A stretch of 27,130 nt of DNA, from contig JBBRLJ010000059.1 of the NCBI GenBank assembly GCA_038231435.1, forward strand, positions 1-27,130, in the 5' to 3' direction. Shown in pieces: positions 1 to 9,307 of this stretch. The notes beneath the pieces were generated by a model, which saw only the letters and a program-made list of their open reading frames with translations, was not told the DNA's origin and did no database searches. A program made the translations under genes and the position numbers. The stretch is from Planctomycetota bacterium. Lineage in GTDB: Bacteria > Planctomycetota > UBA11346. The stretch's first letter is position 1. Each line of letters begins with the position of its first letter.

Positions 1-587
1 TCGCGCAGCTGCTCGCGCGTCATCGCGTCGACCTGCTTGAAGAGGTCCTCGAACTGCTTGGCCGTGTCGCTCTGAAGCTGTCCGATGCCCTCCTGGACCG
101 CAGCCACGCTGCGGTCGACGGCTGCCACATGCTCACCCGTCGCCCTCAGCTGAAGCGCGGCTTCCGCGCTCCGGGCTTCTAGGGCTTCCAGGTTGCTGCG
201 GACGTTGTCGGCCGCGACTAGGCGCGCCTGCAGCTCGTCTCGCGAGCGTTCGAGGTCGACGACGACGTCATGCAGATCCTGCAGCTCTCGGGCCTGCGCT
301 GTGTTCTCCAGCCGCAGCGCCGCGACCTCGGCCGCGACCTCGGCGCGGAAGGCTTCCTTCAGCCGCGCGGCCGCACCGGGCGAGAGAGCCTCGAGCGCCT
401 TCATCTCGGCCGACGGCTCCGTGGCCTGCTTGGCGGCCTGATCGCCGCGCCAGCGACCGAAAAACTCCCGCAGCGTGGTGTGGGAGCCCCGACCGAGATC
501 GGTTGCCACCAGGCGATAGCTGGGCCGGTGCCCACGGGCCGCCACTCGGGAGCAGGACGCGGCGAACTCGTCGTAGGTGATCGTCAT
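1..587 (-). CDS. KfrA_N/TnpT-like DNA-binding coiled-coil protein (partial, runs off left edge)
   Basis: Not in ORF track. Manual translation from ATG at 587: MTITYDEFAASCSRVAARGHRPSYRLVATDLGRGSHTTLREFFGRWR..., matching the KfrA_N pattern (G-RP...V...LG-GS-TT...W). An open Ala/Glu/Leu/Gln-rich heptad region continues to the window edge. Divergent from a tyrosine recombinase. Confidence 0.8.
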   Translation of the reverse strand, partial: MTITYDEFAASCSRVAARGHRPSYRLVATDLGRGSHTTLREFFGRWRGDQAAKQATEPSAEMKALEALSPGAAARLKEAFRAEVAAEVAALRLENTAQARELQDLHDVVVDLERSRDELQARLVAADNVRSNLEALEARSAEAALQLRATGEHVAAVDRSVAAVQEGIGQLQSDTAKQFEDLFKQVDAMTREQLR

Positions 588-695: not shown

Positions 696-1718
696 GTGGA
701 CCTGATTCCAACCAAGAATGCTACAGAGCCCGAATCGGCTCGGGCCCTGGCCCGGCACGAATTGCTGATCGAGGATTGGCTGGTCGCTCTCCATGCCCAG
801 GCGGCAGCCGGACAACTATCGGCCCTGACGGTCACGGCCTACGGCCGGTGGATCCGGCCCTGGCAAGCCTACCTGAAGCAAGTCGAGCCCGGCCAGCCAA
901 CGCCGGCCACCGTCGAGCGCTTCATCATCAGTCATCGGATCGACCGAAGCCCGGCCTCGGCGAACGGGGTCCTGCACGCGATCAAGAGCTGCTACAGCTG
1001 GGCCGAGACCCAGGACCGTTATCCGGCGATCGCGCGCTCCGTCCGCGCGCTCCGAATCGATCTCAGCGGCCCATTGCCAATCCTCGACATCCACCAGGTC
1101 GCAGAGGTTGCGCGACTCGCACGTCATCCCGAACGCAGGACGCTATCGCCGGAGCTCTCGCAGCTCGGCTCACTGCGGAACGAAGCGCTGATCCGCTGCC
1201 TCTACGCAGCAGGCGTGCGCCTCGTTTCCATGGTGCGGGCGGATGTCGTCGACTGCCGCCTCGAGGAATCACCTCCCGCGCTCGTGCACCAGCCAAAGGG
1301 ACATCGCGGGAAGGACGCGCGCGCGCACCTGCCGCCGTTGGCGGCCGACAGTCTTCGCGCGTACCTGGCGAAGCGGCAATCGCTCGGCGTCGACTCGCCG
1401 GCGTTATGGATCGGCATTCATCCCAAGCTCGGCAGTCGCATGGATACGAAGTCACTCCGGAGAATCATCGTGGCTGGATTCGAGCGCGCTGGTCTCGTCC
1501 AACGTGGCGCCGATGGACACATCGTGAACCCGAGAATCATCTCAGCCCAATGCTTGCGCCGCTCGGCGACAACGCAGGTCGTCGAGCATGTCGGCATCGA
1601 AGCCGGGCAAGTCTTTGCCGGCCACGCCTCCATCGACACGACGCGCAAATCCTATGCTCGCGTGAATGCGCACCGCATTCTGCGCGAAGCGAGCCAGCAC
1701 CTGGATCTTCCGCCATGA
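696..1718 (+). CDS. Tyrosine recombinase/integrase (TnpS-like context)
   Basis: RNEALIRCLYAAGVR (box I Arg), PKGHRG (Lys), AQCLRR (HxxR box with H>Q), AGHASIDTTRKSY (His, catalytic Tyr). N-terminal core-binding region (TVTAY...W). Confidence 0.92.
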   Translation: MDLIPTKNATEPESARALARHELLIEDWLVALHAQAAAGQLSALTVTAYGRWIRPWQAYLKQVEPGQPTPATVERFIISHRIDRSPASANGVLHAIKSCYSWAETQDRYPAIARSVRALRIDLSGPLPILDIHQVAEVARLARHPERRTLSPELSQLGSLRNEALIRCLYAAGVRLVSMVRADVVDCRLEESPPALVHQPKGHRGKDARAHLPPLAADSLRAYLAKRQSLGVDSPALWIGIHPKLGSRMDTKSLRRIIVAGFERAGLVQRGADGHIVNPRIISAQCLRRSATTQVVEHVGIEAGQVFAGHASIDTTRKSYARVNAHRILREASQHLDLPP

Positions 1719-1722
1719 GCCA

Positions 1723-1959
1723 TCAGGGAGTGCCCTCCGGCGCATCGACATCCGCTTCGTCGTCGGCGATTCCGAAGTGCTCCTGCCACTCCTCCGGGGT
1801 GATCCCGGTTTTGATGAATTCCCGCAAGGGGCCCGGCACATTCGGCATCGCGTCCTGCAGGAGGACCCCGCTCGCCCAGCTATCAAGCTGGGCATCGGTC
1901 ACCAGAACCTCCAGGGCGTTCTCTTTGCCAGTCAGCGTCGAGAGTCTCGTGATCAGCAT
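1723..1959 (-). CDS. Small hypothetical protein, phage-like (78 aa)
   Basis: MLITRLSTLTGK...LLQDAMPNV...REFIKTGITPEEW resembles a small phage-associated hypothetical family (from memory). AAAGGA upstream of ATG at 1959. Confidence 0.7.
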   Translation of the reverse strand: MLITRLSTLTGKENALEVLVTDAQLDSWASGVLLQDAMPNVPGPLREFIKTGITPEEWQEHFGIADDEADVDAPEGTP

Positions 1960-2051
1960 GGAAGATCCTTTGATTTCGGGGTTGTGGCCCATCGCCTCAC
2001 GTTCGAGGCGTAACCAGAACCCCAGGCTTCCAAACATCAGCGTTTGGTTCC

Positions 2052-2480
2052 ATGACCGCCTCTAGACGGAGCTCAATCCCACGGCCCGTGGTAAAAGCAT
2101 CCGAAATCCGCACGCGAGCGGAGACGCTCATGAAGTACATGGGCTACACCCTGCGCAAAGGTGCTCCTGGCAAGAAGGCGAAGCCGCTCATTCCCGAATT
2201 GATGAGAGCGTTCGGGGTCTCCCGACGCACCGTAGCTCGTGCGCTCAACTCCATGCAGCGTCGCCCTGCTGCGGCGCGCGCAGCAGGGGTCGGCGGGTAT
2301 GGCGACCTGCTAGCAAAGGCTCATGCTCAAGCGAAAACCTCACCACAGGCCGCGGTCCGAGATGTCGACACCGAGCTTCAGCGCGCACTCTTGGACTGGC
2401 TTACGCGCTCATTGAAGAAGCGGACGGATTCGACCGAATTGGCCAAGGTTCTCCTTGGAATACTCCGCGACACAAAGTAG
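2052..2480 (+). CDS. Basic helix-turn-helix DNA-binding protein
   Basis: ELMRAFGVSRRTVARAL is a GntR-type HTH signature. Divergent from 1723-1959. Confidence 0.6.
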   Translation: MTASRRSSIPRPVVKASEIRTRAETLMKYMGYTLRKGAPGKKAKPLIPELMRAFGVSRRTVARALNSMQRRPAAARAAGVGGYGDLLAKAHAQAKTSPQAAVRDVDTELQRALLDWLTRSLKKRTDSTELAKVLLGILRDTK

Positions 2481-2910: not shown

Positions 2911-3282
2911 TCAAAAGAGCAAGAGCTCCCTCGCCCGCTCCAGCGCGAGGACCTCTTCGCCGCCACGCACCACGTCGTCATCGAGCGCCCCAGCGTCGCG
3001 GAATTCACGGTGCTCCTCGGCCGAGAGGATGTGGCCCAACGGCCCCAGGCGGCGGACTGATCCGAACCACGCCGCGAGTTCGTGCCGCTCAAAGATCTCT
3101 CGAATCTGGGTGGCGAAGGATGGAATCTCCTCGGCGATCTCGCCATGCCCGTGTGAGTAGCGCAGCGCATTGAGGAACTTCTCGCCGACGAGATAGCCGA
3201 TCGCTTTCTCGACGCCGAACTGCTCACGGATCCCCTCGGCAGCGGCGCATTGATCGATCCAGGTATCGCGGAATCTGGACAC
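2911..3282 (-). CDS. Conserved hypothetical protein (123 aa)
   Basis: WIDQCAAAEGIREQFGVEKAIGYLVGEKFLN; natural composition and GC3-biased codons; resembles a hypothetical family seen in mobile regions. Confidence 0.75.
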   Translation of the reverse strand: MSRFRDTWIDQCAAAEGIREQFGVEKAIGYLVGEKFLNALRYSHGHGEIAEEIPSFATQIREIFERHELAAWFGSVRRLGPLGHILSAEEHREFRDAGALDDDVVRGGEEVLALERARELLLF

Positions 3283-3391
3283 ACTGCCAGAATCGGAGAG
3301 TCAATGCCGGTGGAGGTGATCATGATTCTCGCCTCTCCAGCCCGCACCTTCTCCGCCTTGCGCTCTGCGTTCTTCTCAGAGCGATTCCCCA

Positions 3392-3910
3392 CTAGATCGT
3401 GGTCGGCACCGTGGCTGCCTCAATGCGGTAGAAGTCATAGGCCGAACCCTGATAGGCCGGGGCGGTCACGGTGTGGGCTGGATCGAGAACGATCCAGATG
3501 TTGGTGCCGCCTGGGGGAGCCGAATGCAGGTCGACTGACTTTACGGGTGTATCGAAGAAGGAATGGGTGCCGTCACCGGTATCGGACGCCGTGAGCGTGC
3601 CCGAAGTCACTAGAGGACCAGTGGCGGAGCCGGTATGGATTTCCCAAGGCACGCTGAGGTTTCCTGTATGCGCCGCACCGAACTGCACCTCGGCGCGGAA
3701 AGTGAGTATTCGCCCTGTCGAGGACCAGGCGTAATCATTGGAGCCACTGGCGCCCGCGACCGGCTGGAGAGACACCAAGCCCTGCGTCGGATTCGGCGGC
3801 GGGGTAACACCACCGCCACCACCACCGCCTCCACCCCCAATACCGCAACCCGCGATGGCCCCGATCAGTGAAACCAAGGTGAGGGAGCGAGCGATTGGGT
3901 GCATGGTCAT
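3392..3910 (-). CDS. Lipoprotein with poly-Gly/Pro linker and a probable Ig-like beta-sandwich (CARDB-like) domain
   Basis: Hydrophobic signal ending in lipobox IAGC, then G10-VTPPPNP linker and a beta-rich domain ending IWIVLDPAHTV. Start 3910 or 3904. Confidence 0.7.
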   Translation of the reverse strand: MTMHPIARSLTLVSLIGAIAGCGIGGGGGGGGGGVTPPPNPTQGLVSLQPVAGASGSNDYAWSSTGRILTFRAEVQFGAAHTGNLSVPWEIHTGSATGPLVTSGTLTASDTGDGTHSFFDTPVKSVDLHSAPPGGTNIWIVLDPAHTVTAPAYQGSAYDFYRIEAATVPTTI

Positions 3911-3976
3911 GGTCCGAGTGTTACAGGCGATGCGGGGCGGATTCAATCCGACATTTCAGATGTTGCAAGACGACAG

Positions 3977-4111
3977 CTATTCGTCCCAGGACGAACGGTG
4001 GCGGTCTCGCCGCAGCAGCTGCCGTTTCCGGTCGTGGTGAACCTGCCGGGGACGCGGCATCGGGAGACGGATGCGCTTCATCAGCTCCAGCTGGGAATTC
4101 GGTTTGGCCAT
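3977..4111 (-). CDS. Small basic protein, 44 aa (below ORF-track cutoff)
   Basis: MAKPNSQLELMKRIRLPMPRPRQVHHDRKRQLLRRDRHRSSWDE*; AGGAG 6 nt upstream of ATG; co-oriented with both neighbours. Confidence 0.6.
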   Translation of the reverse strand: MAKPNSQLELMKRIRLPMPRPRQVHHDRKRQLLRRDRHRSSWDE

Positions 4112-4131
4112 GTCGGGCTCCTGTTGGCGGT

Positions 4132-4566
4132 TCACCAGATTGTGACGCCAACCGGACCCGCCGGCATCACTTCCGTCCGTGACGACGTCTCGATATTCTC
4201 ATCGACCAGGCCACGATGCGCGCTGACGACGTCGCCAGCGATAAGGAATCCACCTCCCGCAATCGGGCACAGCTGTCCCTCGGAGAGCAGGGGGCGCGTC
4301 CGTCGATAGAACTCAACCAGCGCCTGGTACAGGCTCATGTCCGGTGGATAGAGCATCGGCATCTGCAGCTCGAAGCGGCGCACTTCTCGCGCGACAAGCG
4401 CGCGTCCCGACCGGTCCCGATCAATCTGTAAACGCGAATGGCGAAAGTCTGCGTACAGGCCTTCGGAGTAGGAGTGACCCCAGTCCAGCCGCTCATAGCG
4501 ACTCGTTGGAGCCGAAATTATTCGGTATGCCCGAACGTGCTGTCTGAGGAGGTGTGGTGTTCTCAT
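4132..4566 (-). CDS. Hypothetical protein (144 aa)
   Basis: 3' part of ORF 4132..4767 from MRTPHLL. Natural composition; ends 20 nt before the next start. Confidence 0.55.
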   Translation of the reverse strand: MRTPHLLRQHVRAYRIISAPTSRYERLDWGHSYSEGLYADFRHSRLQIDRDRSGRALVAREVRRFELQMPMLYPPDMSLYQALVEFYRRTRPLLSEGQLCPIAGGGFLIAGDVVSAHRGLVDENIETSSRTEVMPAGPVGVTIW

Positions 4567-4839
4567 GTCGGATCCGTGGTTGGCAGGTGGGTGATCGCTG
4601 CTGGAGCCGATCCCCATTCCTGCCGGACCAGGTTCGTGACGGGGCGCACGGTGAAGCCGGCGATCCCATTTACTGATGCACGGCGTCGGAGCGGCGTGGA
4701 TCAAGTGGTCGCTCCTCACGCGAATGCGCGAATGAGCGCCCGCAGCCTCAAATCCAGCACGGCTCACCGCGGATCGGACCCGCCCCTAAGGGGGTAGCCA
4801 AGCAATCGCCACTTGCGCGTCACTTCCTGTTGGGTCTAT

Positions 4840-5256
4840 ATGGACTCCATGCGCGCCCTCGCCGTTAGCCCAGGACCGAGCTTCCCTCGGCCGCTCCTTA
4901 TCGCGGTACCAGCTGGCTTCCCCTCGCCGGCCGAGGATTTCATTGAGGGCCAGCTCGACCTGAACACGTACCTCGTAAAAAATAAAATCGCGACCTTCTA
5001 TGTGCGCGTGTCGGGAGAATCGATGCTGCCCGACATCCACCCGAAGGACATTCTCGTCGTCGATCGCTCACTCAACGCGCGAGACCTTTCCGTGGTCATT
5101 GCCCTCGTCGACGGCGAGCTGGTCTGCAAGCGACTGCGCCTCGACGCCGGCGGCGCCGCGCTCGTGGCCGACAATCCAAGCTTCCCAAAGCCGGAGGCAC
5201 CCACAGCGTCGCTCGAGATCTGGGGCGTAGTCACCGCGGTGATTCACAGAGTTTGA
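4840..5256 (+). CDS. umuD: DNA polymerase V subunit UmuD (S24 peptidase)
   Basis: VPAGFPSPAEDF cleavage motif, VSGESM (Ser), VCKRL (Lys); immediately upstream of umuC. Start 4840 or 4849. Confidence 0.95.
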   Translation: MDSMRALAVSPGPSFPRPLLIAVPAGFPSPAEDFIEGQLDLNTYLVKNKIATFYVRVSGESMLPDIHPKDILVVDRSLNARDLSVVIALVDGELVCKRLRLDAGGAALVADNPSFPKPEAPTASLEIWGVVTAVIHRV

Positions 5257-5259
5257 AAT

Positions 5260-6519
5260 ATGACGCTCCTCGCCTTGGTCGATGGAAATAATTTCTACGT
5301 GTCGGTCGAACGGGTTTTTAATCCGAAGCTCATCGGCAAGCCGGTCGTCGTGCTCAGCTCGAATGACGGGAATGTGGTCGCCCGTAGTGACGAAGCGAAA
5401 GCCCTCGGTGTTGCGATGGGGGAGCCATTCCACGAGCTGAAAGCGCGTCAGAAGCAGCACCCGATAATCTGGCTCAGCTCGAATTTCACATTATACGGAG
5501 ATCTGTCGGCGCGCATGCACGCCATCAGCGCGAGCTACGCGAAGGCAATCGAGGTGTATTCGATCGACGAGGCGTTCCTGGACGTGGAGGGGGGGCAGGA
5601 CCCCGTTGCAGATGGACGGGCCTTGCGGTTTCAGACGAAACAATGGTGCGGACTACCCGTCTCGGTCGGAATCGCCGAGACGAAGACCTTGGCGAAGGTT
5701 GCCAATCGCATCGCCAAGAAGGTCCCGCATCACCAAGGGGTCTACTGGCTGCAACCAGGCCCGGAGCGGGAGCGCATCCTCGAGACGATGGAGCTCGAAG
5801 ACGTCTGGGGCATCGCATCAGGCCTCGGCCGGCGCCTACAGGGCCTCGGGATCAAGAATCCAAAACAGCTACGGGACAGTGATCCCCTGCTCATCCAGCG
5901 GCACCTGGGCGTTGTCGGGCAGCGAATCGTCTACGAACTGCGCGGAGAGAGCTGTCTGTCGCTCGACGTCGTTCCACATCAGCGGAAAACTCTGTGCGTG
6001 TCGCGCACCTTCGGTACCGCCACTTTCCACCAGCGCGATCTCATTGAAGCCGTCGCTGCGTTCACGTCCCGGGCTGCTGAAAAGCTCCGCCACGAGGGGC
6101 TCGTCGCCTCACGAATACAGGTGTTCATGCACAACAGCCGATTCCGGCTGGCCGAAGCGCCCATCATGCATGGTGGCGCTGCGGCTCTCCCGCAGCCGAC
6201 CAGCTGCACCACAGAGTTACTTGGCTATGCGACAGCCATCGTCCGCGCCGTATTCCGCGAGAAAGTGCGGTACACCAGCGCTGGCGTGATGCTTCTCGAA
6301 CTCTCACCTGCGAATGAGGCGGGGCAGCTATCCTTGACCGACCAGCGCGATCGATCGCGCGACGCTGGGGTGATGTCACTGCTCGACCAGGTGAATGCCC
6401 GCTGGAAGGGGGCTCTGATGCCGGCTGCAATGGGCTTTGACCGTCGCTGGACCCCAAGGGCCGAGAATCGCTCACCGCGATGGACGACCAGCTGGAGCGA
6501 AATACCGATCGTGAAATAA
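5260..6519 (+). CDS. umuC: Y-family DNA polymerase V catalytic subunit UmuC
   Basis: [27 protein letters not shown]-terminal [12 protein letters not shown] (DUF4113-type tail). Confidence 0.96.
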
Positions 6520-6770
6520 TTTGGGCAGGAGGAATCTGAACGGGAGCCGTTCTGCTCGTGCAGTGAACCCCAAGCATGATGGCCTATTTCAAAACCGTCA
6601 CGGAAGGCCTTACAGGGCAAGCAGAGCGACCGGCGCGGCCGGAGCTAAGGGGACACACGCCCTACCCCAGAGACAAGGCCTGCGAACTGGTCATCGGCGC
6701 GCCCCGGCGGCTGCAGGTCGAACGTGGATTCTCACCACGAGCAGATACGCTGCCCATGCAGGGGAACGCT

Positions 6771-7406
6771 ATGTGTGGTCGCTATGACAGCCTCGCGGAT
6801 CTGAATGTCGCAGCGGATGCCTTCGCCGCCGAGCTCTCCTTCGATCGCACGTCATGGACGGCAACCTCGGACGTCAGGCCCACGACGCGGCAACCAGTCC
6901 TTCTCGCTGACAAGACGGTCGTGTTGGCGCGGTGGGGATGGAAGCCAATCTGGATGAAGAGCGGTGTTCTCATCAACTCCAAGTCTGAGGAGGCTGCCAC
7001 AAAGCGGACGTTCTCGAAGGCATTCGCAACCCGACGGTGTGTCGTGATTGCGAGCGCCTTTTACGAATGGCGGTCAGAGGCGGGAAAGAAGATTCGCGTG
7101 CGCTTTACGCTGCGCGGAACCCCCTGTGTCGCCATGGCCGGTATATGGGCAGATGAGGCAACCGAAGGAGGTGCGGAACAGGAACGAAAGTTTGTCATCA
7201 TGACGACACGGCCAAATGCGCTCGTCGAACCGGTCCACAACCGCATGCCCGTGCTGCTGAAGCATCAACAGGTGGGGGAGTGGTTGAACCCACAGACTCC
7301 CGCCGAGCACGTTACCGCTCTCTGTGATCCCATCGCTGCGTCTGCCATGGAATCCATCGACGCCCCGGAGGTCAAAGGGCCCAAGGGTCGCATTTCGGTG
7401 GCATGA
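6771..7406 (+). CDS. SOS response-associated peptidase (SRAP/YedK/HMCES family)
   Basis: True start MCGRY at 6771 (catalytic Cys2), INSKSE, FYEW, HNRMP motifs. Confidence 0.93.
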   Translation: MCGRYDSLADLNVAADAFAAELSFDRTSWTATSDVRPTTRQPVLLADKTVVLARWGWKPIWMKSGVLINSKSEEAATKRTFSKAFATRRCVVIASAFYEWRSEAGKKIRVRFTLRGTPCVAMAGIWADEATEGGAEQERKFVIMTTRPNALVEPVHNRMPVLLKHQQVGEWLNPQTPAEHVTALCDPIAASAMESIDAPEVKGPKGRISVA

Positions 7407-7434
7407 ATCAGGAGATCGCGAAGGTCCTGGCTCG

Positions 7435-9006
7435 ATGACGCAACTCAACATTTTCACGCGCAAGGTCAACCACGAGTCCGATGTGTGCTCGCTTGTGATG
7501 AATGGCTATCCGTGCACCGCGGTCGTTGCTGCGCGCGGCATCTGCACGTACCACGCCCAGCAGCTGCGCGCCAACGGTCGGTATGAGGAATTCGCATTAC
7601 CTCCGATCACGGGCCAAAGACGCCGTCATGAGATCGTGCTAAAGCCGCCTGCGGAACTTCGGGACGGCGTGTGTCGGGTCGCGGTCAACGGCACCAGCTG
7701 TGAATCGCCCGCACAGCGTCGCGGTCTATGCAGTACGCATTACGCCGGGATCTGGCAGCGCGACGATCTAAACCTGGAAGACTTTTGCGCGCAAACTAAG
7801 CCGCGAGAGTTTCGCCGACGCAAAGTCGTGATGGCGGGTGTCTGTCGGGTCCGCGAAGGGGGCGCCGACTGCCAACACTCACCACACGCGCGAGGCCTTT
7901 GCAAACGTCACTACGCCTGGCTCCGCGAGAACTCACCGCACGACTTTAATGCGATCGCAGAGCCGGATCCGGGCCAGAGGCGTTGGGCACTGCGCCGCGA
8001 TCCCAAATCGGGTCGATGCAGGGCTGAAGAAAACAGCATTGGGTGCGGTGCCATTGCCTTCACGAGAGGGCTCTGCAAACACCACCTGAACGTGCTTCGG
8101 TCTAAGCCTGCTCTGCTCGAGCAGATTGCCTTATCTCCGAAACAAAGGCGGACGAAGGCCTATACCAAGAAGGTTTCGTTTTCACCCGTCGAATGCATCG
8201 TCATCGACGACGGTACGCCCTGTCGTGAGCCTGCTTCTCGGCGAGGACTGTGCCAACGCCATCGAAAGGCGATTTGGACCAGCAAAGCCTACGCGCTCGA
8301 GGACTTCGAGTTGCCGGAAAAGGAGTTCGTCCTGCGGCCGAAGTCGGATGCGGAATCTGTCGATGGCCTCTGCCGTGCCGTCGTCAACGAGGCGCTCTGC
8401 GCGCACCTCCCGAACACCCGTGGGCTTTGCCGAATGCACTATCGGCTCGCGGAGCGTCTCGGGCTCACCGAGCAATTCTCAAAAATCGGCAGAGCGGTCG
8501 CGGCATCCAGGGTCCAGGTCTATCTGGACAAAAACATCATCATCGACTACCTCGATCAGGTCTCTGGCCTATCCAGTGCTAACGCAGCATCATTGACCGT
8601 GATGGATGCGATACATTGTGGGCGACTGGTCGGCTGTATCAGCACAGACGCGATTAAAAGTGCCTACAACCGGCTGCGGCATCGTCTCACCCGGCGGCCC
8701 GACGAAGGCGGGATTGGATGCACTGAAGAGGAGGCCGAGGCCAAGGCCCAAGCAGCCATCGGCAGACTCCTTAAATCCCTTAAGCATTGGCGGATCGTTT
8801 CGCTCGACGCCGTGGCATTTCTCAATGCCTTTCGGAACCCTGGGGGACTTTCCTTAGAGGATGCCCTGGAATGGATGACGTACCAGGTTGCGCGGGCGAA
8901 GCCGGCGGGCCCCATACATTTCATCACGCGCGACGCGGACTTTGAAGAGGGGCTCCACCCTGCCGCCCTTCTAAAAGAAATCGATCGACAGCGTACAGGG
9001 GGCTAA
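7435..9006 (+). CDS. Protein with six CCCH-type repeats and a C-terminal PIN domain (523 aa)
   Basis: Six copies of C-x8-C-x6-RG[IL]C-x2-H about 60 aa apart, then VYLDKNIIID...LEDA...FITRDADF (PIN pattern). Start at ATG 7435 avoids overlap with SRAP. Confidence 0.8.
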   Translation: MTQLNIFTRKVNHESDVCSLVMNGYPCTAVVAARGICTYHAQQLRANGRYEEFALPPITGQRRRHEIVLKPPAELRDGVCRVAVNGTSCESPAQRRGLCSTHYAGIWQRDDLNLEDFCAQTKPREFRRRKVVMAGVCRVREGGADCQHSPHARGLCKRHYAWLRENSPHDFNAIAEPDPGQRRWALRRDPKSGRCRAEENSIGCGAIAFTRGLCKHHLNVLRSKPALLEQIALSPKQRRTKAYTKKVSFSPVECIVIDDGTPCREPASRRGLCQRHRKAIWTSKAYALEDFELPEKEFVLRPKSDAESVDGLCRAVVNEALCAHLPNTRGLCRMHYRLAERLGLTEQFSKIGRAVAASRVQVYLDKNIIIDYLDQVSGLSSANAASLTVMDAIHCGRLVGCISTDAIKSAYNRLRHRLTRRPDEGGIGCTEEEAEAKAQAAIGRLLKSLKHWRIVSLDAVAFLNAFRNPGGLSLEDALEWMTYQVARAKPAGPIHFITRDADFEEGLHPAALLKEIDRQRTGG

Positions 9007-9067
9007 TTCGACCCAGTTCCGCAGCTGGAGAGTTCGCCCACATCCTGTTGTAGCGGCAATCCCCCAT

Positions 9068-9307
9068 TCACTCGTGAAGTAACCGCTGCGCCTCAACTGG
9101 AGTCGCTGCTCCACCATCGTTAGAGAGGCGAGCAACGCGTCGCTCGTGCTGAGCATCGCAAGCGAGCCAGCCACGGCGCCACTCCCTCCAAAAACTGTCT
9201 TCAGTTTCCGGAGAGTACGCCACCCAGTTATATGGATTGCCCTTTAGTGGGAGTGGGGGCTTTTGCAGATATGCGCCCATACCATCGAAGAACGCTCGCC
9301 CTCTCAT
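9068..9307 (-). CDS. Small Rmf/CrpP-like protein
   Basis: AFFDGMGAY...NPY...WRRGW fits the RMF-like G..A...PY...W..GW pattern; ATGA overlap with upstream stop. Confidence 0.6.
   Translation of the reverse strand: MRGRAFFDGMGAYLQKPPLPLKGNPYNWVAYSPETEDSFWREWRRGWLACDAQHERRVARLSNDGGAATPVEAQRLLHE

Follow-up and report, generated by a model that had tools for sequence, protein, structure and literature searches.

A gene for a six-finger CCCH protein with a predicted C-terminal PIN nuclease in a mobile island of a Planctomycetota bacterium

The presence of CCCH fingers and a PIN domain in one protein is familiar from animal immune RNases, and a tandem reader array followed by a C-terminal nuclease is the layout of TALE, PPR-SMR and C2H2 zinc-finger nucleases. 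To our knowledge, nearly all bacterial PIN nucleases are small toxins kept in check by an antitoxin that is encoded separately, and arrays of tandem zinc fingers are seldom seen in bacteria. Here we describe a gene (product P0001) in which six CCCH units precede a PIN domain; it lies in the window, by which we mean the whole stretch of 27,130 nucleotides that was analysed (Table 1). Both parts are of known kinds and their union appears to be undescribed. NCBIfam returned no match, none of the Pfam, PHROG or PADLOC models covers a six-finger plus PIN architecture, and no description of it was found in the literature searched (mainly open-access main texts, without supplements), which agrees with a first-pass annotation, made from the sequence alone, that did not recognise the architecture.

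Compared with VapC/PIN_3-type nucleases (7vwo; VapC20, 5wz4; PAE0151, 2fe1), the C-terminal domain has the same fold (Z 10-13) and the same three near-invariant acids, but it carries a basic insert of ~30 residues and an invariant Lys after the first Asp, it is preceded in the same chain by a 350-aa finger array, and it scores 13-16 bits against the 27 bits of Pfam PIN_3. Unlike VapBC type II systems, in which the toxin gene shares a two-gene operon with its antitoxin, the locus has no adjacent antitoxin gene, and VapKSC, as presented in PMC13373217, is a different system. Regnase-1/MCPIP1 (ZC3H12) likewise has PIN and CCCH in one chain, with a finger described as improving substrate binding; however, its single finger is placed C-terminal to PIN (PMC5943514), whereas the six described here are all N-terminal. 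In the searches run, Regnase-1 was neither a sequence match nor a top structural match of the finger-PIN protein, and the likeness is one of analogy, not of kinship.

Table 1. Features of the finger-PIN gene and of its neighbourhood, by position in the window.
Feature	Position	Strand	Basis
KfrA_N gene; marks lower-GC mobile region	3-587	-	Pfam
Tyrosine integrase; marks lower-GC mobile region	696-1718	+	Pfam
Phage-family ORF (PHROG 20898) in same island	1723-2037		
HTH gene in same island	2052-2480		
umuD-like and umuC-like ORFs, upstream of gene on same strand	4813-6519	+	Pfam
SRAP (SOS response associated peptidase) ORF, ends 28 bp upstream of gene	6576-7406	+	Pfam from residue 66
Gene for 523-aa six-finger PIN protein (P0001)	7435-9006	+	Unbroken translation; start matches homolog P0003
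CCCH unit 1 core: C18, C27, C37, H40	7486-7554	+	Motif scan, AlphaFold
CCCH unit 2 core: C80, C89, C99, H102	7672-7740	+	Motif scan, homolog comparison, single-unit model
CCCH unit 3 core: C137, C146, C156, H159	7843-7911	+	Motif scan, AlphaFold
CCCH unit 4 core: C195, C204, C214, H217	8017-8085	+	Motif scan, AlphaFold
CCCH unit 5 core: C254, C263, C273, H276	8194-8262	+	Motif scan, AlphaFold
CCCH unit 6 core: C313, C322, C332, H335	8371-8439	+	Motif scan, AlphaFold
PIN/VapC-fold domain, residues 355-521	8497-8997	+	Foldseek, VIA, homolog alignment
Predicted catalytic acids D365, D405, E475, D476, E479, D500	D365, 8527-8529; D476, 8860-8862; D500, 8932-8934	+	Homolog alignment
Basic helical insert specific to the family, behind strand 2 (Y411, R415, R417, R420, G425-G426)	8644-8769	+	

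The six CCCH units and the PIN domain

The choice of start codon is backed by a relative (P0003, 63% identical) that begins at the same place as the window protein. All six units have a spacing of exactly C-x8-C-x9-C-x2-H and recur with a period of 57-62 aa, and a six-frame scan of the 5.2-Mb genome with a looser motif returned six matches, all of them these six units. There is no repeat at the DNA level within the gene (best off-diagonal direct match in self-BLASTN, E 1.1), so the duplications behind the array are old; taken with the genome-wide scan, this indicates that the array is real, old and single-copy. In the AlphaFold model of the whole protein (32-row alignment; mean pLDDT 89.3, pTM 0.58), every unit consists of a strand, a hairpin, a helix and a short helix, and an alpha/beta domain follows the six. 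The exact spacing and the common fold bear out the tandem repeats that the first-pass annotation had reported. It also noted a helix behind each unit, often with an acidic-aromatic ending; that ending is clear-cut in units 1, 2, 5 and 6, and units 3 and 4 have it in altered form. We infer that each unit binds one zinc, zinc binding as such being predicted. The array is basic (60 K+R vs. 38 D+E), and unit 2 is its most conserved unit, with a conserved helix behind it (Y103-I106-W107-Q108-R109-D111).

An assembly or frame artefact is ruled out by the homologs, by selection and by the fold. Among contigs built from the reads of four DNA runs of one study, a contig of 5912 letters covers positions 3252-9163 with three letters differing, and the ORF is therefore bridged, by a run that may itself be the source of the assembly. 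The depth is lower, at 10.5 vs. 14.6 on the flanks, which is no measure of the share of cells, and the contigs of the four runs hold no credible joint that skips the gene. P0002, which is 99% identical to the window protein and whose longest contig likewise has 5912 letters, is probably the same record.

Structure searches with the C-terminal domain gave a clear result. The best Foldseek matches were VapC20 (E 8.9e-4), PAE0151, Shigella VapC and PAE2754, and VIA aligned 132 positions of residues 355-521 to 7vwo_A, a mycobacterial TA toxin (Z 12.9, rmsd 2.8), with mostly VapC/PIN chains among its best 17 rows. Pfam PIN_3 (PF13470) matched weakly, with 13.3 bits (E 0.15) for the whole protein and 15.8 bits (E 0.026) for the domain alone, short of the curated cut-off of 27 bits, and 1 of the 32 family members matched it at E<=1. 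The matches that the Atlas listed for the whole protein were PIN clusters, at lead level only (0.78-0.80). Across 42 complete PIN domains, a count that omits P0002, P0041 with its two PIN domains, and three proteins whose ends are broken or cut (P0010, P0025 and P0026), E475 and E479 are kept in all 42 and D365, D476 and D500 in 41 each, the one exception at D476 being a replacement by E; T498 is found in 42, D502 in 29 and D405 in 27. The helix-2 glutamate of canonical VapC, which we take to correspond to residue 409, is Ser/Ala in these proteins. As defined in PMC5499597, the PIN superfamily has three near-invariant acids, located after S1, at H4 and after S4, and a variable fourth, mostly after S2, with at least four acids required. 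All acidic positions of this definition are present, the fourth being D405 in the window protein and E475/E479 in 42 of 42 domains. The basic insert is common to the PIN-only sisters P0106, P0122, P0123 and L030, and it also occurs in P0069 and P0099, two proteins whose N-termini are long and unrelated. Based on the conserved acids and the shared insert, the finger-linked PIN is a distinct subfamily that is predicted to be active. The C-terminal PIN domain that had been proposed on first pass is thus well founded.

Family, distribution and genomic setting

A word-index search (8000 candidates scored) recovered 32 full-length relatives at 31-99% identity and an exhaustive search recovered 108 representatives, and profiles were built from both sets. 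Finger-plus-PIN proteins, i.e., those with a PIN domain and at least five units, account for 46 of the 136 proteins profiled. Most of these have six units (34 proteins), while five have five, three of which look cut at the start, four have seven, and one each has eight, nine and twelve, the last with two PIN domains. The ligand pattern reads CCCH in 263 of the 286 units, and a further 13 have CCCC. In 31 six-unit proteins, the nearest neighbour of a unit stood at the same array position for 178 of 186 units, and identity is 37-50% for the same position across proteins as opposed to 26-37% within one protein. The six closest pairs have dN/dS values of 0.10-0.19. Of the 105 pairs compared, 15 have dN < 0.33, and in 12 of these PIN shows a lower dN than any other of the seven regions. 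Judged by these sequence comparisons, the architecture is an old fixed array under purifying selection. Because its units hold position, the array is fixed and not programmable, and TALE-like programmability is excluded by the position-fixed units, their low identity within a protein and purifying selection; unlike TALE, PPR and C2H2 arrays, there is no sign of a swappable code. Programmable arrays of the TALE and PPR type consist of nearly identical, exchangeable units whose specificity positions are hypervariable. The homologs with variable repeat number that the first-pass annotation suggested looking for do exist (5-12 units); its reader array, if taken as freely modular, is not supported.

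Named hosts of the family are Planctomycetota and Ca. Riflebacteria MAGs, one Ca. Ozemobacteraceae MAG and one MAG labelled Bifidobacteriaceae. The gene was found in none of the 47 other genomes from the class to which the window belongs and in 3 of 400 genomes of the phylum, many of these genomes being incomplete. None of 156 pattern matches in viral contigs was a relative, and phage and plasmid records gave no match to the finger-PIN gene. A quick tree of PIN left 26 of 46 inner branches unsettled, and we draw no order of events from it. Split or frameshifted copies are seen at L013, L023, L026 and L028, caused by decay or assembly error.

The region of the gene has a GC content of 58-62% vs. 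67% for the genome. A umuD-umuC-SRAP mutagenesis cassette (4813-7406) sits inside the integrase-bearing lower-GC island. The DNA around the window gene shows no noteworthy tandem or terminal repeats, and ahead of the gene there is no convincing promoter. The loci studied comprised 27 from genome and metagenome scans and three from further genomes; no neighbour gene is conserved across those compared with one another, a set to which L035 and L036 do not belong. Among ten non-redundant loci of at least 10 kb (the window, L004, L005, L006, L011, L015, L021, L023, L035 and L036), an integrase, serine recombinase or TrwC relaxase is present at five as a raw count, and no recombinase occurs among the heuristically picked ORFs at the other five; the L005 copy follows an integrase at tRNA-Sec at a distance of 0.8 kb. 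The members of one clade (75-95% DNA identity) resemble one another from a TTGACA-type promoter-like site, ~140 bp ahead of the start, down to the stop codon, and their flanks are unrelated; a site of this kind is present in 8 of 16 upstream regions, the window's not being one of them. Since likeness is confined to the promoter-to-stop stretch, the gene spreads as a self-contained unit without an antitoxin, in one clade as the gene plus its own promoter. With SRAP upstream, no conserved small neighbour, and likeness in that clade ending at promoter and stop, the earlier observation that there is no adjacent antitoxin stands.

Several other features of these loci were observed. A non-coding element of ~175 bp (L011:11168-11342, L015:1250-1422, L013:1797-1974 and L027:3955-4061) directly follows the gene in two loci and directly precedes it in two others, keeping the same orientation. 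This element has a ~22-bp inverted repeat and a promoter-like site on the minus strand, a 45-bp part of it occurs twice in genome G425, and it has no Rfam match; it could be a cassette boundary or a recombination site. At two unrelated loci, a gene for an RNase_H_2 (TM0106-type) nuclease-helicase lies <7 kb from the finger-PIN gene (L005:14232-19925 and L023:3403-8989), accompanied by TIR and ADP-ribosylglycohydrolase genes in one and by a Schlafen-type helicase in the other. At L030 (778-1526), a PIN-only sister is preceded by a 92-aa ORF without a Pfam match that overlaps its start, and the two are a possible new TA pair.

One could envision a toxin-antitoxin system in a single chain, where the array acts as an autorepressor and a built-in antitoxin that binds the promoter of its own gene and masks PIN until proteolysis or stress frees the toxin, thereby stabilising the island. 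PIN_3 clusters are typically TA toxins (PMC5499597), a conserved promoter-like region accompanies the gene in one clade, and the L030 sister with its overlapping ORF has a TA-like layout. We nevertheless consider this scenario rather improbable. Autorepression needs far less than 350 aa of six fixed fingers, the window copy is without that promoter and begins 28 bp after SRAP, and the conserved face of unit 2 is kept in the PIN-less proteins P0168 and P0097, so it is not merely a mask for PIN.

A role in DNA processing together with the SOS cassette, in which the fingers bind DNA and PIN cuts flaps or gaps in the course of repair or of element transfer, its basic insert serving as a small arch, seems quite improbable. 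Here, the gene comes after umuD-umuC-SRAP, and at L018 SRAP comes next after the gene with a gap of 35 bp. The conserved basic insert follows strand 2, which is the arch site of FEN nucleases (PMC5499597), and related fingers are fused to DNA-acting domains. However, SRAP adjoins the gene at only two loci, VapC chains far outrank FEN/Exo1 in Foldseek (Exo1 at rank 37, probability 0.41), and the AlphaFold model has no H2TH element behind the PIN core.

Relatives and ligand of the fingers

DUF5763 (PF19067), a family without known function, scores 30.1 bits summed over the units of the whole protein vs. a cut-off of 26.3, and 31 of the 32 family members match it at E<=1. In a Pfam search with 108 units, 47 matched DUF5763, 14 matched Zf_WRKY19 (weakly) and one matched zf-SAP30, while none matched the WRC domain (PF08879) at E<=5; WRC was seen only as an Atlas lead (score 0.80, 21% of that cluster). 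The Atlas placed units 2-4 near small phage and bacterial proteins (0.90-0.91), with WRKY19, DUF5763 and WRC clusters as leads. PHROG HNH families match the units (PHROG 5351, E 1e-8), and related units are fused to Mrr and an SF2 helicase (P0088), an SF2 helicase (P0085), EndoVII (P0103), HNH (P0112), HTH (P0133, P0168) and pRiA4 ORF3 domains. Kinship to modules of phage HNH proteins, as suggested on first pass, is confirmed by PHROG 5351 and P0112. Compared with the DUF5763, Zf_WRKY19, WRC and SAP30 fingers and the phage HNH/EndoVII modules, the units described here are ~58 aa long with an extra strand and a second helix, and they form a fixed six-unit array tied to PIN. Because the catalytic partners of related fingers are DNA enzymes, the ligand of the fingers would, by analogy, most likely be DNA.

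Some proteins with related fingers deserve mention in their own right. P0088 (1141 aa) has an Mrr-like nuclease and an SF2 helicase followed by approximately ten related CCCH fingers, and P0085 (840 aa) has an SF2 helicase followed by three; both are uncharacterised and restriction-like. P0051, P0053, P0062 and P0065-P0096 are lysine-rich stand-alone arrays of 3-10 fingers with no catalytic domain, some of which may be fragments. In P0168 (L007:1629-2858) and P0097, units 1-3 are joined to an HTH_17 and receiver-like regulator that replaces units 4-6 and PIN. The notion of an effector swap as an adaptive design has lost ground, since stand-alone HTH-receiver proteins of ~225 aa form a common family, the finger-fused form amounting to two proteins (78% identical) among 63 matches.

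The partners of the finger also bear on whether the protein could work in the manner of Regnase, with fingers that bind a specific RNA element and a PIN that cuts, so as to trim transcripts of the island or host without killing or defence. In human MCPIP1/Regnase-1, the CCCH finger is described as raising the affinity of PIN for longer RNA (PMC5943514). A single fixed target fits the fixed unit order and purifying selection, no antitoxin would be needed, and RNases are the closest folds of the PIN domain. On the other hand, every other catalytic partner found for the finger acts on DNA, no common RNA element or Rfam family was found near the gene at the four loci scanned, and the very patchy distribution speaks against a host regulator. 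We therefore regard a Regnase-like mode of action as unlikely.

Modeling of a single unit (pLDDT 85.7) produced no strong structural match. The top match was the sigma-interacting domain (SID) of GcrA both in Foldseek (E 4.8, TM 0.48/0.56) and in VIA (Z 3.1, rmsd 3.6, 42 aligned), both of them weak, and in VIA it was tied with the fingers of A20, which is ubiquitin-binding, RING and SAP30L. No VIA match of the unit exceeded Z 3.1, a result that speaks neither for a new fold nor for a difference, and a sequence search of the PDB with the family profile gave no real match. The GcrA finger (5yix) is described as C-x14-C-x9-C-x2-H and as binding sigma region 2 (PMC5887438). It has the C-x9-C-x2-H half, the strand before the first Cys and the C-terminal helix in common with the units; however, the first spacing is 14 as compared to eight here, and the window protein has six tandem copies and no GcrA DNA-binding domain, with a weak score. 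The SAP30 finger, which has C-x8-C and C-x2-H in common with the units, binds DNA and is described as preferring nucleic acid (PMC2673417), and WRC is described as DNA-binding (PMC11139448). Because the GcrA, SAP30 and WRC fingers differ in ligand, the unit fold leaves the type of ligand unfixed.

A protein ligand for the fingers, which the first-pass annotation did not consider, is a live rival. In its fuller form, GcrA-type fingers would grip a conserved protein of the host or of a phage (a sigma factor, RNA polymerase or the ribosome) and PIN would be brought to nascent RNA. The GcrA SID is the top single-unit match in both Foldseek and VIA, I106/W107 of unit 2 are located at the same spacing from the His as A150/Y151 of the GcrA interface, and a target conserved across phyla could explain the conservation of unit 2. 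On the contrary, Z 3.1 is in the chance range for a small domain and is shared with A20, RING and SAP30L, none of the 108 units matches the GcrA families of Pfam or NCBIfam, and six fingers are unneeded for one sigma site. A complex prediction that paired units 1-3 with the principal sigma factor of the host (region 2) scored 0.02 vs. a mark of 0.32, which is no evidence either way. As a full account of the protein, we find such tethering improbable. The host genome itself encodes two full-length RpoD-like sigma factors (G000:C23:73717, i.e., L037, and G000:C25:58524, i.e., L038) that are 57% identical over region 2.

Predicted action and significance

The reading that we tentatively prefer is that the protein would be a self-restrained, finger-guided nuclease that serves as a one-gene conflict effector (defence or toxin) and is carried as cargo of mobile islands. 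The basic finger array would dock on nucleic acid, most likely DNA, with a conserved contact through unit 2. The nuclease would remain silent at first; docking would then raise the local concentration of PIN domains, make them dimerise or relieve an internal block, and in this way switch on or aim the predicted VapC-type activity. Self-restraint would be needed because the active site is intact and conserved, yet no antitoxin travels with the gene. The substrate that is cut would, as in VapC, most likely be RNA, and the outcome could be growth arrest or loss of invader transcripts. A DNA ligand and an RNA substrate are drawn from two separate analogies, and both need not hold. Likewise, the roles in sequence-specific RNA cleavage, defence and toxicity that were put forward on first pass are ones that we infer.

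Several observations weaken the effector reading. PADLOC 2.0 returned no families for P0001 at E<=1 and none for seven relatives at E<=1e-5. Few loci show clear defence-like neighbours; L023 is the best of them, with BrxHI/DrmD-like, PDC-S41 and MkoA-like genes, and at L005, L009 and L016 such neighbours are recognised by generic domains. The nearest folds of the unit (GcrA SID and A20), weak as these matches are, bind protein. Slow, position-fixed evolution is unusual for an arms-race sensor. Finally, residue 409 is Ser/Ala, and no more than 27 of the 42 domains retain D405.

A bolder proposal is that the protein is a natural bacterial zinc-finger nuclease, in which 58-residue fingers would recognise an invader by a long, fixed signature in its DNA or RNA and license the VapC-type nuclease in the same chain, making an antitoxin unneeded. 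We regard this as doubtful. If true, Regnase-type immunity would gain a bacterial counterpart, gain and loss of units (from 5 to 12) would retune the signature, and the finger would be a new portable nucleic-acid reader that connects the modules of phage HNH proteins with GcrA and with the WRC and WRKY19 fingers of plants.

Returning to the effector reading that we prefer, an intact and conserved PIN that spreads alone with six fingers calls for another kind of control, which the single gene makes amenable to direct testing. Should the fingers read sequence, they would constitute a new modular reader with an attached nuclease, and if they bind protein, the GcrA finger would be extended into conflict systems. 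In addition, the protein would offer a first functional handle on fingers of the DUF5763 type.
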